Virus record (IMG/VR): IMGVR_UViG_2713896902_000002
Span: 1-36,980 of that record
DNA length: 36,980 nucleotides
Source of the DNA: a virus
Lineage: Duplodnaviria; Heunggongvirae; Uroviricota; Caudoviricetes
Strand: one strand, 5' to 3'
The notes beneath the pieces were generated by a model. It was not told the DNA's origin. It made no database searches and worked only from the letters and a program-made list of their open reading frames with translations. The stretch's first letter is position 1. The number at the start of each line of letters is the position of its first letter. Position numbers and translations under genes: made by a program. Positions 24,943-36,980 of this stretch are shown in pieces.

Positions 24943-25470
24943 TTACTCTGGTTTTTGTGGCCATTCTGGCTTTGCCGTATCCACGCGGCTGACCAGAACG
25001 CTGTAGCGTTCCCAGGCTTCCAGTCGTGTACGTTCCTCATCTGTTGCCATATTCAGCCTGACAGCACGTTCCAGAAGCTGGATGACTGATTCAGCTTCTG
25101 AAAGTAACGCGGCCTTTTGTGATTCGGCCTGTTGTTGCTGTTCGTCTGCTGTATAAATCCGCTTAACCACAGTTCCGTCCTTAAACACCCACTTCCCTGA
25201 ATCATCGGCACGACGATTGGCTGTTATATCGGGAATCTCAACGACGCTAAAGCCTTCGGGATTAAGTGTTGAGGCATCTTTGGTTATGGCAACAATAATA
25301 TTATTTTCGTCGTATACAATCTTTATGGTGTCGTCCTGAAAGTTATTTACTTCCTCATACCAGTTTTTACCGTCTTCGGACCATAACCAGATAACATCAA
25401 AAATTTTTGTTAGCTGATATTGTTCTTTTGTTTTTGGATTTCCGGACTTAATATTTTTTAAATGCTGCAT
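24943..25470 (-). CDS. alternative tail fibre assembly chaperone G' (opposite orientation)
   Basis: [21 protein letters not shown]..., paralog of G, convergent with it. Confidence 0.8.
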
Positions 25471-33531: not shown

Positions 33532-33960
33532 CTATACATTTATCCCATCCTGCAAAATCTCAACCACTTCAAATTCCTCTGCAATCAATTCCATATCTTC
33601 AGAAAAATAGCCTTCTCGGACAAAAAATCGCTGATGCTCTTTCTGCCAGTATTCAAGGCTTAAATCTCCTTCGCCTTCTTTGCGGGCAAACACCTCAGTG
33701 ACATCGCAAAAACGCACTAATCGCATTGAAACTAACCGGATTACACAGACAGGAACATTCTGACCATCAAGAATAATGCTATAGTTTCCAATCTTAGGGG
33801 CAGATTCATCCTGCAAATAAGAGATTAAAGAACCACAGGAGGCTGTTTTAACCCCTTTTTTTATCAAGCCAGCAAGCTCGCTAGCCAACTCAGGACTGTC
33901 CCCCATTTGCCAAGCATCTGCACCAGGGTATTTTCTTTTTATTTCCTCAATCGTAACCAT
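33532..33960 (-). CDS. ASCH (PUA-like) domain protein, AT-rich moron; ORF extends to 33978
   Basis: C-terminal FARKEGEGDLSLEYWQKEHQRFFVREGYF pattern typical of ASCH; opposite strand to D/ogr; visibly AT-richer. Confidence 0.55.
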   Translation of the reverse strand: MVTIEEIKRKYPGADAWQMGDSPELASELAGLIKKGVKTASCGSLISYLQDESAPKIGNYSIILDGQNVPVCVIRLVSMRLVRFCDVTEVFARKEGEGDLSLEYWQKEHQRFFVREGYFSEDMELIAEEFEVVEILQDGINV

Positions 33961-34174
33961 TACCACCCTCTTACACATCTATGAAAAGAAATATTGTACT
34001 GTTTTAGCATGTTCCACACCTACATTACCAATAACGATTTTACCCAGATAACGAGGCCTGTCATTCGCTCAATGCAAACCATCAGATTTGGTTGTTCTAG
34101 TTACGTAAACTATTAGTTGGAGTCTGAGCTGGTGCAACTTAAAATAGCAATATTAGCATGTTAAGGGGGTTTCC

Positions 34175-34435
34175 ATGTTTCGTTGTCCGCTTTGTGGCGC
34201 ATCTGCCAGAATACGCACCAGTCGTTCGGAAAATGATTCAGATACCGTACGGAAAAAATATTACCAGTGTAACAACCTGGAATGCGGCGTATCTTTCACC
34301 ACACTGGAAGCCTTCGACAAATTCACATCCAGACACGCCCCCGGCGTCCACTCTTCAGAGGGCATCCCGTGGAATGAGCTGCCAGCTTCGCACAGGGGAA
34401 GCAGTCAGATGAGTTTGCCATTACCTCATAACTGA
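34175..34435 (+). CDS. ogr: Ogr/Delta-type zinc-finger late-gene activator
   Basis: MFRCPLCGASARIRTSR...KYYQCNNLECGVSFTTLEAF resembles remembered P2 Ogr (MFHCPLCQHAAHARTSR...RYHQCQNVNCSATFITYES); Cys4 arrangement; RBS aaggggg. Confidence 0.85.
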   Translation: MFRCPLCGASARIRTSRSENDSDTVRKKYYQCNNLECGVSFTTLEAFDKFTSRHAPGVHSSEGIPWNELPASHRGSSQMSLPLPHN

Positions 34436-34581
34436 CAGCAGGGAGAAATACGGGAGAACCCCAAATAAGGCAGGGATGCAGGAAGATCGCATAAAAAAAC
34501 AAACATAATGTTTTATTTTGAGCATTAATAATATTATTTTCTCAGGTAAGAGTTCAGTACTAATAAAAATATGAGGAGCGC

Positions 34582-34719
34582 ATGTCATCCAACAATATAT
34601 TTATTCTCATTATCTGCATAATTATAACCCTTTCCATATGGATATTATACGGTTCACTGTGCGAATTAAGAGCGCTCATGTGGGGAGACGAGTTTACAGA
34701 TTTTTTGCAATGCAAATAA
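34582..34719 (+). CDS. Hok/Gef-family-like small membrane toxin (45 aa)
   Basis: MSSNNIFILIICIIITLSIWILYGSLCELRALMWGDEFTDFLQCK: N-terminal TM helix then SLCELR and EF..FL, comparable to Hok KSLCEIR...EVAAFM; RBS gaggag. Confidence 0.4.
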   Translation: MSSNNIFILIICIIITLSIWILYGSLCELRALMWGDEFTDFLQCK

Positions 34720-34992
34720 TAAGAAAGCGAATAATATAAGGTTCGCTCTTACAATTGCATAATTTAACTAAAAAAAATCGCCATACTCCGCTATTTTCGC
34801 AACACGCGGGATTGTCGGGGTGTTCCAAAAGAGATAGATTACGCACGGGTGCCTTTCGGCTGATGGCTGGAGGGAATACCCGAAGGCCGGATGTGGAAAG
34901 GCCCCGGAAAACATCTCTGTTTAACCGAGGCCCTGACCATCTACCCTAAGCAAGTGATAGGTTAGCGCCTCCCCGAAAAAGGAGCAAGCGCT

Positions 34993-35133
34993 ATGTCGCA
35001 AAAATCGCTTACGGCCATCACGTTCTGCGTGACGGTAATCCTCATCATCTGGATGCTGCACGGTTCGCTATGTGAAATACGGATGAGCTTCTGGGGAGCG
35101 GAGTTTGCGGCGTTCTTACAGTGTAAGCAGTAA
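34993..35133 (+). CDS. Hok/Gef-family-like small membrane toxin (46 aa), paralog of 34582..34719
   Basis: MSQKSLTAITFCVTVILIIWMLHGSLCEIRMSFWGAEFAAFLQCKQ: exact SLCEIR motif; RBS aaggag; GC-rich structured leader upstream. Confidence 0.45.
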   Translation: MSQKSLTAITFCVTVILIIWMLHGSLCEIRMSFWGAEFAAFLQCKQ

Positions 35134-35269
35134 GGAAACCGCGACGGGGGAGCAATCCCCCGTCAATCGGTTGCCAGGGTAAGGCCGAAATGGCACCCAA
35201 ATTTAAATTGAGGCCCATCAGTAAAAAGAGGTGGGCTTAACGCTTGTTTAAATTTGAAAGGAACTCTTT

Positions 35270-35566
35270 ATGAGTGAAATGGTATTTTGTCGCGGATGCG
35301 GCAAGGAAATACATAAAGATGCCACATCTTGCCCCAATTGTGGAGCACCTCAAAGAACAGCAAGTTCAAAAAGCAGAATAACAGCCGCACTACTGGCTTT
35401 CTTTTTAGGTGGTCTTGGCGCACACAAATTTTATTTAGGTAAAGTGGGGCAAGGATTTCTTTACCTTATTTTTTGCTGGACATTCATCCCGGCAATCGTG
35501 GCTTTTATTGAGTTTTTTATCTATCTGTGCACCTCAGATGAAGATTTCGCCCGCAAATACGGCTGA
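35270..35566 (+). CDS. zinc-ribbon plus TM2-domain membrane protein
   Basis: N-terminal CxxC-x-CPNC zinc ribbon (CRGCGKEIHKDATSCPNCG) followed by LLAFFLGGLGAHKFYLGK, a TM2-domain signature. Confidence 0.6.
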   Translation: MSEMVFCRGCGKEIHKDATSCPNCGAPQRTASSKSRITAALLAFFLGGLGAHKFYLGKVGQGFLYLIFCWTFIPAIVAFIEFFIYLCTSDEDFARKYG

Positions 35567-35801: not shown

Positions 35802-35824
35802 TCTCGAAAATGTGGTCACTGCGT
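35802..35824. other. candidate attR core (direct repeat partner of 11..33)
   Basis: gtggtcactgcgtggacacgcac; 21 of 23 identical to 11..33; preceded by perfect hairpin aagcccgca-atgc-tgcgggctt (35771..35792). Confidence 0.45.
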
Positions 35825-35996
35825 GGACACGCACTGATATAAATCCTTTTATATCAATAAATTAAATCAACATCTTTTTCATCAACAAGGATTTTCACGT
35901 TTGTGGTACCTGTATGAGACGAGAGTTAACCAAACAAGTGTGCCATAATCTCGCGCCCAGGCATACTTGCGATGATTTCAGGTATAAGGATACATA

Positions 35997-36980
35997 ATGA
36001 TACAACCTATTTCCGGCCCTCCTCCCGGGCAACTGCCAGACCGGGAAAACAGCGCAGGCAATCAGCCTTTATCCAGTCTGCAACGTACCGCCCTGGAAAG
36101 CTTGATGACCAAAGTAACCTCGCTGACGCAACAACAGAGAGCGGAGTTATGGGCCGGCATCAAACACGACATCGGCCTGCCAGGCGATTCACCTTTACTC
36201 TCGCGCCACTTCCCCGCTGCGGAACATAACCTCGCGCAACGTCTGCTTGCCGCGCAAAAGAGCTATTCTGCTCGTCGGCTTTTAGCCCAGTTAGGGGAAT
36301 ATTTACGGTTGGGAAATAACCGTCAGGCGGTTACGGATTACATCCGAAATAACTTTGGTCAGACACCGCTTAACCAACTCTCGCCAGAACAATTAAAGAC
36401 CATTCTTAACCTGTTACAGGAAGGGAAAATGGTTATTCCTCAACCACAGCAACGTCAGGCTACCGATCGTCCTTTATTACCGGCGGAGCATAATACGCTT
36501 AAACAACTGGTGACTAAACTCGCCGCGGCGACAGGGGAACCCAGCAAGCAGATCTGGCAGTCGATGCTGGAGCTTTCTGGTGTGAAAGATGGCGAACTAA
36601 TCCCGGCAAAACTGTTTAACCATCTGGTCACCTGGTTGCAGGCGCGTCAGAGCTTAAGCCAACAAAATACCCCGACGCTGGAATCGCTTCAGATGGCGCT
36701 AAAGAAACCGCTGGATACCAACGAGCTGGCAGCACTATCTGCGTATATCGAGCAAAAATATGGCCTTTCCGCGCAATCCGTCCTTTCTTCTGTACAGGCT
36801 GAGGATATCCTGAACCAGCTCTATCAACGGCGGGTTAAAGGGATTGATCCACGAGACATCCAGCCACTGCTCAATCCCTTTCCACCATTAATGAACACAT
36901 TGCAAAATATGGCGACACGTCCCAGCGTGTGGATTTTGTTAGTCGCCATCCTCATCATGCTGGTCTGGCTGGTACGTTAA
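35997..36980 (+). CDS. flk: host flagellar regulator Flk (C-terminally membrane-anchored)
   Basis: MIQPISGPPPGQ... with Gln-rich body and C-terminal hydrophobic anchor WILLVAILIMLVWLVR, as in enterobacterial Flk; identification from memory. Confidence 0.65.
   Translation: MIQPISGPPPGQLPDRENSAGNQPLSSLQRTALESLMTKVTSLTQQQRAELWAGIKHDIGLPGDSPLLSRHFPAAEHNLAQRLLAAQKSYSARRLLAQLGEYLRLGNNRQAVTDYIRNNFGQTPLNQLSPEQLKTILNLLQEGKMVIPQPQQRQATDRPLLPAEHNTLKQLVTKLAAATGEPSKQIWQSMLELSGVKDGELIPAKLFNHLVTWLQARQSLSQQNTPTLESLQMALKKPLDTNELAALSAYIEQKYGLSAQSVLSSVQAEDILNQLYQRRVKGIDPRDIQPLLNPFPPLMNTLQNMATRPSVWILLVAILIMLVWLVR

Follow-up and report, generated by a model that had tools for sequence, protein, structure and literature searches.

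Hok, the toxin of plasmid R1, is a HOK_GEF membrane peptide of about 50 residues translated from an mRNA of about 350 nt whose two ends are joined by a tac/fbi-like helix (PMC9841398). Upon removal of the 3′ end, an alternative hairpin forms at the 5′ end; the ribosome-binding site (RBS) is sequestered, a stem-loop stabilises the 3′ end, and the promoter of the antisense RNA Sok overlaps the SD region of the toxin gene. Translation of the leader frame mok is needed for translation of hok in this paradigm, and a hok copy without Sok is lethal even as a single copy on the chromosome (PMC9841398). The only experimental study of a prophage-borne hok module that we found in the literature concerns hokW-sokW of the Stx2 prophage Sp5, an experimentally established type I toxin-antitoxin system whose toxin, after induction, speeds lysis and phage release (PMC8621323).

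Here we analyse two genes in a 36,980-nt stretch of Caudoviricetes DNA (hereafter the window; IMG/VR record IMGVR_UViG_2713896902_000002). Two unlike members of the Hok family, ORF1 (34582–34719) and ORF2 (34993–35133), both on the plus strand, are carried as cargo of an Escherichia albertii P2-like prophage (assembly GCA_003027535.1) between ogr and attR. The coordinates of both reading frames were verified. The att repeat of about 25 nt has copies at 10–33 and 35811–35836, and the right copy bounds the pair, which bears out the original prediction that these genes are prophage cargo. ORF2 resembles R1 hok in its peptide and in the predicted mRNA length, closing helix, alternative 5′ hairpin, sequestered RBS and 3′ stem-loop, with a candidate antisense promoter at the equal relative position; it differs in having its own strong SD, no conserved mok frame and a score against the Rfam model RF01794 that is under the gathering score. 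ORF1 has the peptide fold and the 3′ stem-loop in common with R1 hok, and none of the RNA control elements.

The left neighbour of ORF1 is ogr (34175–34435, plus strand; Pfam Ogr_Delta, 59 bits), the late-gene activator. No plus-strand terminator was found in 34380–35300, and hence none between ogr and ORF1. In a Salmonella P2-like prophage, ogr is transcribed in lysogens under all the conditions tested (PMC7067206). ORF1 itself lies in an AT-rich segment of 365 bp (34436–34800, plus strand; 32–36% GC) that is missing from the related E. coli and P88-like prophages; blastn retrieved nothing like it from 5426 E. coli genomes. Megablast and phage matches to the region begin only at 34801–34827, and in the layouts of EcPF40 and P88 the hok promoter directly follows ogr.

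ORF2 and its predicted hok-type mRNA

ORF2 encodes a 46-residue peptide of the Hok/Gef family, MSQKSLTAITFCVTVILIIWMLHGSLCEIRMSFWGAEFAAFLQCKQ, which scores 30.1 bits against Pfam HOK_GEF (PF01848), above the 22-bit gathering threshold, and matches PHROG 251 ('MokW-like host killing') with an E-value of 2.5e-23. Hok/Gef family protein is the name of 68 protein clusters, and an ORF2-type gene is annotated as Hok/Gef in 1557 of the 5426 E. coli genomes and likewise in P88-like and Stx phages. The 46-residue subfamily to which ORF2 belongs is carried by P88-like (Xuanwuvirus) phages, Stx phages, IncI/IncF plasmids and the chromosomes of E. coli, Salmonella and Klebsiella. At the DNA level ORF2 is 92–95% identical to its counterparts in P88-like phages and E. 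coli prophages, which have the same ogr-hok-TM2 order, and 74–82% identical to those of Stx phages. Other carriers of the subfamily are devoid of ORF1 and have the hok promoter directly after ogr. The best named equivalog of both ORFs is HokA (NCBIfam NF007290; 35.8 bits for ORF2 and 19.6 bits for ORF1), an identity that was rejected for either of them, the scores being far under the 89-bit cut-off.

Our literature search returned no experiment on this subfamily. ORF2 and hokW-sokW are both prophage-borne hok-type modules, and no other system offers as good a functional precedent for ORF2, or possibly for ORF1, as the latter. HokW differs from ORF2 in having 51 residues and in beginning with MKQQKAM, as encoded in the cloning primer YO-357 (PMC8621323). 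The ORF2-type gene is a locus separate from hokW in the same Stx phages (VT2-Sakai 44767–44835). HokW presumably represents the HokD/RelF-like branch.

A GC-rich, hairpin-rich leader that could carry a fold-back structure or an antisense RNA had been proposed for ORF2, and the analysis bears this out for the composition and the fold-back and finds a Sok-like antisense promoter as well. The leader has 55% GC, and 34847–35006 matches the Rfam sok/hok leader model RF01794 with an E-value of 6e-8 and 43.5 bits, against a gathering score of 59. Relatives score 30–57 bits; the whole subfamily falls just short of the curated score, although covariation supports its structure. The predicted promoter of the ORF2 mRNA (34812–34840, plus strand; TTGTCG, 17-nt spacer, TAGATT) has the top score in the region and is conserved in 9 homologues; the transcription start predicted from it, 34847, falls exactly where the Rfam model has its position 1. 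The predicted full-length unit spans 34847–35198 on the plus strand (352 nt), and the 13 homologous units measure 344–357 nt. In unrelated contexts, namely Stx phages and plasmids, the unit of homology is 34835–35198, exactly from promoter to fbi.

A consensus fold was computed with RNAalifold from 13 units of E. coli, phages, plasmids, Salmonella and Klebsiella. In this structure 96.6% of the cells are paired versus 35–40% with slid partners, and compensatory changes occur in 18 pairs versus 1–7 in the slid controls. In the minimum-energy fold of the ORF2 unit, a tac-like 5′ arm (34847–34861) pairs with 35184–35198 over 15 bp; the fbi-like 3′ arm (35183–35198) is also the end point of all between-locus homology. 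RNAalifold independently recovers this closing helix, in which both partners of the alignment-column pairs 10/353, 11/352, 12/351 and 13/350 change from the E. coli type to the Salmonella/Klebsiella type; columns 10–14 and 349–353 correspond to 34856–34860 and 35184–35188 of the window. The ORF2 mRNA is thus predicted to possess a long-range 5′-3′ closing helix supported by covariation. When the 3′ end is absent, the 5′ arm refolds with 34896–34905. A further hairpin (34969–34998, plus strand; helices 6–8, 97–100% paired) encloses the AGGAG of ORF2, and the start-codon region pairs with the AEFAAF codons in the consensus structure. Past the stop codon lies a 3′ stem-loop (35136–35172, plus strand; helices 13–14) with outer AACCG/CGGTT and inner GACGGGGGA/TCCCCCGTC arms, in which five pairs are compensatory. 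A mok-like frame was sought as well and rejected: leader ORFs of 9 homologues vary in frame, length and stop, and none of them reaches the hok start.

On the minus strand, a candidate Sok-like promoter occupies 34959–34987, with a −35 hexamer TTGCTC at 34987–34982, a 17-nt spacer and a −10 hexamer TAACCT at 34964–34959. Hexamers and spacing are invariant or nearly so in 9–13 homologues, phi296 having TTGACT. We take the geometry of this promoter to be that of the R1 Sok promoter, by analogy. It would give rise to an RNA of about 60 nt (34890–34952, minus strand; ends inferred) with a putative weak U-tract and a GC-rich hairpin at 34934–34898; the complement of this hairpin is helix 5 of the consensus structure, and it corresponds to the central hairpin of the Rfam model. 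Taken together, the sequence features identify ORF2 as a predicted ordinary Hok/Gef gene within a complete canonical hok/sok-type module.

ORF1, a divergent relative of ORF2

ORF1 (PSY39067.1) encodes a divergent Hok-like peptide of 45 residues, MSSNNIFILIICIIITLSIWILYGSLCELRALMWGDEFTDFLQCK. Its score of 18.8 bits against PF01848 is under the 22-bit threshold, as are those of its clade (16.9 bits for the copy on the E. albertii IncF plasmid pEA5_1, no match at all for the homologue P0002), and the NCBIfam Hok models give 18–20 bits versus cut-offs of 73–89. Against PHROG 251, ORF1 has an E-value of 3e-9. When 1.84 billion representatives were searched exhaustively with a profile, the matches were mainly this Hok subfamily, and 6 of the 8 others carry the GSLCE…FLQCK motif. 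ORF1 is 49% identical to ORF2 from end to end with zero gaps (pairwise E-value 4e-17), a similarity far above chance for peptides of 45 residues. We consider the two to be true paralogues, as had been supposed, and ORF1 to be a divergent Hok/Gef relative whose homology is demonstrable despite sub-threshold family scores. The supposed Hok/Gef kinship of both peptides hence stands, for ORF2 directly by its Pfam score and for ORF1 via ORF2 and PHROG 251.

Both peptides fit the Hok layout of about 50 residues with one N-terminal transmembrane (TM) helix and a tail with conserved cysteines. The hydrophobic stretch covers residues 8–22 in each (Kyte-Doolittle 15-residue mean 3.2 for ORF1 and 2.7 for ORF2) and is followed by GSLCE[LI]R and EF..FLQCK. 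C27 and C44 are invariant among 12 aligned sequences, and ORF1 has 9 invariant residues in common with the whole subfamily, both cysteines included. An N-terminal lysine, present in every ORF2-type sequence, is missing from the ORF1-type peptides. Good RBSs had been claimed for both genes: ORF2 has AGGAG (34980–34984) 8 nt before the ATG, and ORF1 has GAGGAG (34573–34578) at a short spacing of only 3 nt.

Only three ORF1-type sequences are known, from this prophage, from pEA5_1 and from a contig of 38% GC designated L003, and all are intact. Two of them are proteins among 5.8 billion clusters; the third, an unannotated plasmid copy, came from tblastn against plasmids. Scans with back-translated peptide patterns (genome_contigs, metagenome_contigs and viral_contigs) and with a degenerate DNA pattern (metagenome_contigs and viral_contigs) yielded no further relatives, and tblastn against phages gave ORF2-type genes only. 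The dN/dS of ORF1 is 0.085 versus the pEA5_1 copy and 0.117 versus the L003 homologue, with an excess of synonymous changes in both comparisons (binomial P = 1.6e-4 and 6e-5), which marks ORF1 as a real gene under purifying selection (dN/dS about 0.1).

The order of ogr remnant, ORF1 and ORF2 is the same on pEA5_1 as in the window. ORF1 is intact there and ORF2 has decayed: its promoter is gone through a 38-bp deletion, codon 2 is a stop, 15 bp of coding sequence are deleted, and the 3′ hairpin and fbi are lost. The L003 homologue is located downstream of fimbrial genes with unrelated flanks and no hok nearby; neither a search of genome_contigs with the PapD-like chaperone of that contig nor blastn of it against plasmids gave a match. 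Since ORF1 is intact beside a dead ORF2 in the one case and in the absence of a neighbouring hok in the other, it does not seem to depend on a Hok partner.

Origin and control of ORF1

The pair had originally been read as a duplicated hok/sok-like locus. Of this reading, the hok RNA architecture could be found in ORF2 only, and a tandem duplication of the complete locus, with a fold-back leader and an antisense antitoxin for each copy, now appears very unlikely. Such duplications do exist in the subfamily: in Salmonella enterica L017 and L018, two Hok genes of 46 residues stand head to tail about 490 bp apart, each unit with its own Rfam sok-leader match, and the units of L017 are 91% identical. 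Both Salmonella copies are complete with leaders, whereas the upstream copy in the window is leaderless and has 49% protein identity to its neighbour. Some traces in the window also fit a duplication. The 365-bp segment has roughly the length of a hok unit, the two units resemble each other in DNA between codon 19 and a point about 10 nt beyond the stop codon, and the sequence just past the ogr stop is loosely like the ogr-hok junction of P88. Directly past the ORF1 stop, a stem-loop (34721–34750, plus strand; AAG.AGCGAA/TTCGCT.CTT) that folds in the window and in pEA5_1 lacks a U-tract and begins as far past its stop codon as the 3′ stem-loop does in hok-type units. However, local alignments of the ORF1 flanks with the ORF2 promoter, leader and 3′ fold-back score no better than shuffles, the ORF1 region has no Rfam match at E-values up to 10, and no closing 5′-3′ helix is common to the folds of the three homologues. 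The flanks of the L003 homologue are entirely different. Synonymous sites between the coding sequences of ORF1 and ORF2 are saturated and their GC contents differ (34% versus 50%, or 50–55% with the ORF2 leader), which argues against any recent tandem duplication. As far as the sequence can tell, ORF1 is without a detectable hok-type leader, fold-back or antisense partner.

Some control of ORF1 that escaped our search probably exists, because an unregulated Hok-like toxin would be hard to keep, given the lethality of R1 hok without Sok (PMC9841398). On the same ground, that an antitoxin-less toxin of this kind should be counter-selected, ORF1 might be a complete type I module of an unrecognised sort, controlled by a cis-antisense RNA of its own or by some other small regulator unlike Sok; we rate this as unlikely. 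All three homologues have weak minus-strand promoter-like sites (about 6 bits) 60–79 nt ahead of the ATG, and another is found in the 5′ part of ORF1 in the window (TGGAAA, 16-nt spacer, GATAAT). Furthermore, the flanks of ORF1 are about 80% identical between the window and pEA5_1, against 66% at synonymous sites. Sites of about 6 bits are, however, common in AT-rich DNA; the one within the ORF is not retained in pEA5_1 or L003, the candidate terminators near ORF1 are not conserved, one being removed by a 17-bp deletion in pEA5_1, and there is no non-coding conservation around ORF1 between L003 and the window. A conserved SD-sequestering hairpin was rejected as well, being seen in the window and L003 and lost in pEA5_1. 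Since only three ORF1-type sequences exist, comparisons aimed at detecting a conserved small RNA or structure have next to no power. Regulation in trans was also considered. Cross-regulation by the Sok-like RNA of ORF2 was dismissed, since its duplex with ORF1 is energetically no stronger than those formed with shuffled targets (z = +0.76), and so was a complementary region elsewhere in the window, for which the sole find, an AT-rich direct match of 15 nt at 25294 that slightly exceeds the matches in shuffles, was judged to be low-complexity chance. No recognisable promoter was found for ORF1. Late promoters of the Ogr type carry the dyad TGT-N12-ACA, and none was seen by eye in 34436–34581.

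The missing promoter and the short SD spacing, together with the sub-threshold family scores and the extreme rarity of ORF1 (two proteins among the 5.8 billion clusters plus one plasmid copy), are what would be expected of a functionless decaying relic or a chance ORF. This is the least probable of the readings considered here, given that all three copies are intact with a low dN/dS and a significant synonymous excess, that the 9 invariant residues of the subfamily include both cysteines, and that ORF1 on pEA5_1 persists where the adjacent canonical hok gathered four disabling lesions. It is also improbable, to about the degree of a tandem duplication, that ORF1 is a non-toxic domesticated derivative of Hok, possibly a membrane peptide that acts at the protein level to modulate or neutralise the Hok next to it. 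The missing N-terminal lysine would suit this idea, the K2E change in R1 Hok having abolished detectable protein (PMC9841398), and so would the tolerance of ORF1 with no visible antitoxin. Nevertheless, ORF1 is kept beside a dead ORF2 and where no hok is nearby, and it has conserved the TM helix and the two cysteines that toxic members have.

Proposed mechanism and biological meaning

The explanation that we favour, and regard as probable, is that ORF2 forms a canonical hok/sok module next to an orphan, AT-rich Hok-like gene, ORF1. A good sigma-70 promoter would drive the ORF2 mRNA from about 34847, and the full-length transcript, with its 15-bp end helix and its buried RBS and start codon, would be translationally inert. 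On the model of R1 hok, the 3′ arm would then be slowly trimmed away, allowing the 5′ end to refold into a translatable mRNA for a presumably toxic peptide, unless the short antisense RNA from the minus-strand promoter at 34987–34959 pairs with the leader and leads to decay without translation. Unlike R1, this subfamily would use its own strong SD in place of the mok frame. The lack of mok counts against this explanation, in that it does not account for a block of translation by an antisense RNA pairing 27 nt ahead of the SD.

ORF1, which lies between ogr and the hok promoter, would have a separate, AT-rich origin and be independent of the ORF2 module. Its transcription is most likely weak, whether as read-through of ogr or driven by a poor promoter, and its SD spacing of 3 nt would make for poor translation, so that the peptide may be confined to certain conditions, for example lytic development. 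A stronger version, that the ORF1 clade is a Hok-derived peptide freed from RNA antitoxin control and read through from ogr, acting as an effector of lysis or abortive infection, or else modulating Hok-type toxins while not being toxic itself, seems to us distinctly unlikely. As for the role of the locus, maintenance of the prophage or abortive infection had been suggested, and the precedent of hokW-sokW points instead to help with lysis and release after induction (PMC8621323).

The locus is mostly known biology, with ORF1 as a modest curiosity. What is new about ORF2 is that a widespread subfamily of 46 residues appears to have the full hok mRNA architecture without a conserved mok frame, and escapes detection at the Rfam gathering score. 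ORF1 looks like a selected Hok-like gene that lacks the RNA safeguards thought indispensable and that outlives the canonical module adjoining it. Were ORF1 toxic, one would have to ask how a type I toxin can be tolerated when its antitoxin is missing; were it harmless, it would exemplify a domesticated Hok fold. Should ORF1 indeed be wired to ogr, it would illustrate a route by which a type I toxin may become an ordinary regulated phage gene.

Prophage setting and the two Hok/Gef-like genes

The window is identical to a contig of Escherichia albertii (GCA_003027535.1), in which the Pfam Flk_N match for the host gene flk was found. The prophage is P2-like. An att repeat of roughly 25 nt lies at both of its ends (10-33 and 35811-35836), and flk (35997-36980, + strand) starts ~160 bp past attR and continues to the window's final base; taken together, these positions put the right end of the prophage shortly before flk. 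In the right arm, ogr (34175-34435, +; Pfam Ogr_Delta) is upstream of ORF1 (34582-34719, +; 45 aa) and ORF2 (34993-35133, +; 46 aa). Between the hok module and attR lies a gene for a 98-aa protein (35270-35566, +) that combines an N-terminal zinc-ribbon with a TM2 domain (Pfam TM2, 69 bits). The hok-TM2 pair is also found 3′ of ogr in E. coli prophages, which makes the TM2 gene a second conserved cargo gene. On the opposite strand, at 33532-33978 (-) between a gpD-like tail gene and ogr, lies a gene for an ASCH-domain protein (80 bits), which looks like further right-arm cargo.

The peptides of ORF1 and ORF2 can be aligned from end to end with no gaps (49% identity, E 4e-17), and have in common a hydrophobic helix (residues 8-22) and the motifs GSLCE[LI]R and EF..FLQCK. 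Their resemblance is therefore not due to chance, and the pair of paralogous Hok/Gef-like ORFs described in the original prediction is borne out.

ORF2 and its hok-type unit

ORF2 passes the Pfam HOK_GEF model (30.1 bits, with a gathering score of 22), matches PHROG 251 with an E-value of 2.5e-23, and belongs to 68 protein clusters that carry the NCBI name 'Hok/Gef family protein' and come from E. coli, Shigella, Salmonella and Klebsiella. The DNA at ~34801-35198 shares 92-95% identity with P88-like phages and E. coli P2-like prophages, with the order ogr-hok-TM2 kept, while the identity to the Stx-phage locus is 74-82%; an ORF2-type locus is present in 1557 of 5426 complete E. coli genomes. 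Homology in unrelated contexts always spans 34835-35198, from the promoter -10 box to the last base of the conserved GGCACCC motif.

The promoter of ORF2 (TTGTCG, 17 nt, TAGATT) has the top score in the region, and its predicted start, 34847, coincides with position 1 of the Rfam sok/hok-leader model (RF01794), which matches 34847-35006 (E 6e-8). When 34847-35198 was folded, the first 15 bases paired with 35184-35198 in a 15-bp helix and the Shine-Dalgarno (SD) sequence was enclosed in a hairpin; with the 3′ end removed, the 5′ end refolded locally onto 34896-34905. The mRNA thus follows the same logic as plasmid R1 hok (PMC9841398), in which tac and fbi are the 5′ and 3′ arms of the fold-back. 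An alignment of 13 full hok units (344-357 nt; from the window, P88, four Stx/related phages, two plasmids, Klebsiella oxytoca and four Salmonella copies) was analyzed by RNAalifold, which independently recovered the closing helix, the SD hairpin and the 3′ stem-loop, together with a 14-bp helix that joins the start-codon region to the AEFAAF codons. In the consensus structure 96.6% of cells were paired and 18 pairs were changed on both sides, against 35-40% and 1-7, respectively, when the 3′ partners were slid by 1-3 columns. Four covarying pairs are located in the closing helix; they read CGGC/GCCG in E. coli-type units and CGAC/GTCG in Salmonella-type units. The start-codon/AEFAAF helix joins columns 153-168 of the alignment (A6) with columns 258-273 (window 34993-35008 with 35092-35107), and this pairing is the probable reason that GCGGAGTTTGCGGCGTTC hardly varies as DNA across ORF2-type genes. 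Folding and covariation support the hairpin-rich, fold-back leader suggested for ORF2.

On the minus strand, a predicted promoter that is invariant or nearly so among homologues (-35 TTGCTC at 34987-34982, 17-nt spacer, -10 TAACCT at 34964-34959) is followed by a GC-rich hairpin at 34934-34898. This arrangement fits a putative Sok-like antisense RNA of ~60 nt (ends inferred). R1 hok has mok, whereas no conserved mok was found in the ORF2 subfamily, which has its own strong SD instead; the leader ORFs of nine homologues vary in frame and length, and none reaches the hok start. The subfamily leaders (the window with 43.5 bits, and L012, L013, L015, L017 and L018) score 30-57 bits in RF01794, all below the gathering score of 59, so that despite their covariation they are missed by standard annotation.

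Several individual loci deserve mention. A Salmonella unit (L015, ~1330-1710) lacks the 5′ GGGTGCC tac element but has the 3′ GTCGTAAGGCACCC fbi element; its transcript, if one is made, would be unable to form the closing helix. The hok of the Stx2a phage Stx2_EH2011 (L010) has an 8-bp deletion right after the start codon, giving a frameshift (MPQNSQHF...), and this copy is a pseudogene although the rest of its unit is conserved. Within ~150 bp downstream of hok in a Salmonella P2-like prophage (L013), the sRNA STnc540 gives a strong hit (172 bits; 1795-1992, -) that adjoins ihfA/pheT, presumably in host sequence flanking the attachment site. ORF2 is, in sum, an ordinary Hok/Gef gene within a complete hok-type unit, which is already-known biology; the minor additions are a subfamily without mok and an Rfam threshold that overlooks it.

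ORF1, a rare gene apart from the hok module

ORF1 scores 18.8 bits in Pfam, under the cut-off, is also under the NCBIfam cut-offs, and matches PHROG 251 with an E-value of 3e-9. Among 5.8 billion protein clusters it is represented by two proteins: PSY39067.1, which is ORF1 itself and bears the existing name 'hok/gef family protein', and a 69% identical, 49-aa protein from a Logan contig, whose gene has unrelated flanks and lies downstream of fimbrial usher/chaperone-type genes. When 1.84 billion representatives were searched exhaustively with a profile, most of the additional hits were ORF2-type Hok proteins, and a repetitive 506-aa protein also scored. A third, unannotated copy was located by tblastn on the E. 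albertii plasmid pEA5_1, and no further relatives turned up in scans of contig collections from genomes, metagenomes and viruses. ORF1 lies within a 365-bp segment of 32-36% GC, which has a blastn match in none of the 5426 E. coli genomes and is inserted at the exact ogr/hok-promoter junction of related prophages.

The pEA5_1 copy is the most informative comparison. This IncF conjugative plasmid (NZ_CP117576, 3735-4470) carries a P2-like right-arm fragment, with parM/stability genes on one side and a RelE toxin gene on the other, in the order ogr 3′ remnant (last ~70 bp), intact ORF1 and pseudogenised hok module. The ORF2 copy has lost its promoter through a 38-bp deletion, has a stop at codon 2, is short by 15 bp of coding sequence covering the conserved LHGSLCE stretch, and lacks the 3′ hairpin and fbi. 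An intact ORF1 beside four such disabling lesions argues that ORF1 is maintained independently of the hok/sok module. The window and pEA5_1 copies differ by 9 synonymous and 4 non-synonymous changes (dN/dS 0.085; binomial P of the synonymous excess, 1.6e-4), and dN/dS against the Logan homologue is 0.117 (P 6e-5). Judged from its sequence, ORF1 is a real gene.

The hok control elements were not detected around ORF1. There was no Rfam match up to E 10 over ORF1 and none in its pEA5_1 and Logan copies, and the similarity of its flanks to the hok promoter, leader and 3′ UTR did not exceed that of shuffled sequence. DNA similarity between the two units is limited to codons 19-45 plus ~10 nt, ending at the post-stop stem-loop, which begins at an equal offset in both. 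The start-codon/AEFAAF helix of ORF2-type mRNAs is absent from ORF1, where the matching residues are EFTDF; it is exactly at the helix-forming residues that ORF1-type genes differ (TDF/KDF). The predicted Sok-like RNA has no special complementarity to the ORF1 mRNA. Promoter- and terminator-like sites near ORF1 are weak and mostly not conserved, and an SD-enclosing hairpin occurs in two ORF1 homologues and is missing from the third. The region upstream of ORF1 (34527-34541) and the tail-fibre region (25294-25308) share an AT-rich direct repeat of 15 nt without mismatch, AATAATATTATTTTC; it exceeds the best match in 100 shuffles by one base and is probably low-complexity chance.

Expression, function and the nature of the locus

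No terminator was found between ogr and ORF1, and the ogr of a Salmonella P2-like prophage is transcribed in the lysogen under every condition tested (PMC7067206); read-through from ogr is thus a plausible candidate source of ORF1 mRNA. Since R1 hok without Sok is lethal even as a single chromosomal copy (PMC9841398), ORF1 would have to be barely expressed, controlled by something undetected, or not toxic. A non-toxic product would be consistent with the absence of the N-terminal lysine, which is present in all ORF2-type peptides and missing from ORF1. For ORF2, the one experimental precedent found for prophage hok function is hokW-sokW of the Stx2 prophage Sp5, in which the antisense RNA vanishes on induction and HokW speeds lysis and doubles phage release (PMC8621323). 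HokW (51 aa, beginning MKQQKAM) is encoded at a locus separate from the ORF2-type gene of the same Stx phages, so its function is transferred to ORF2 by analogy.

The original prediction had interpreted the two ORFs as a duplicated hok/sok-like locus. True tandem duplications of complete ORF2-subfamily units do exist in Salmonella, and ORF1 is unlike them. Two Salmonella enterica loci (L017, 1354-2201; L018, 1355-2201) carry complete units paired head-to-tail, each unit with its own Rfam sok-leader match; the L017 units are 91% identical to each other and separated by a 137-bp spacer. ORF1, lacking hok control elements and differing in composition and age, does not support a duplication: the interpretation holds for ORF2 as a complete hok-type unit and is not supported for ORF1 as a second module. 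The locus is one canonical module and one orphan Hok-like gene, stacked at the ogr-attR cargo site, and ORF1 is a new, very rare and divergent member of the Hok family, unusual in its absence of RNA control.
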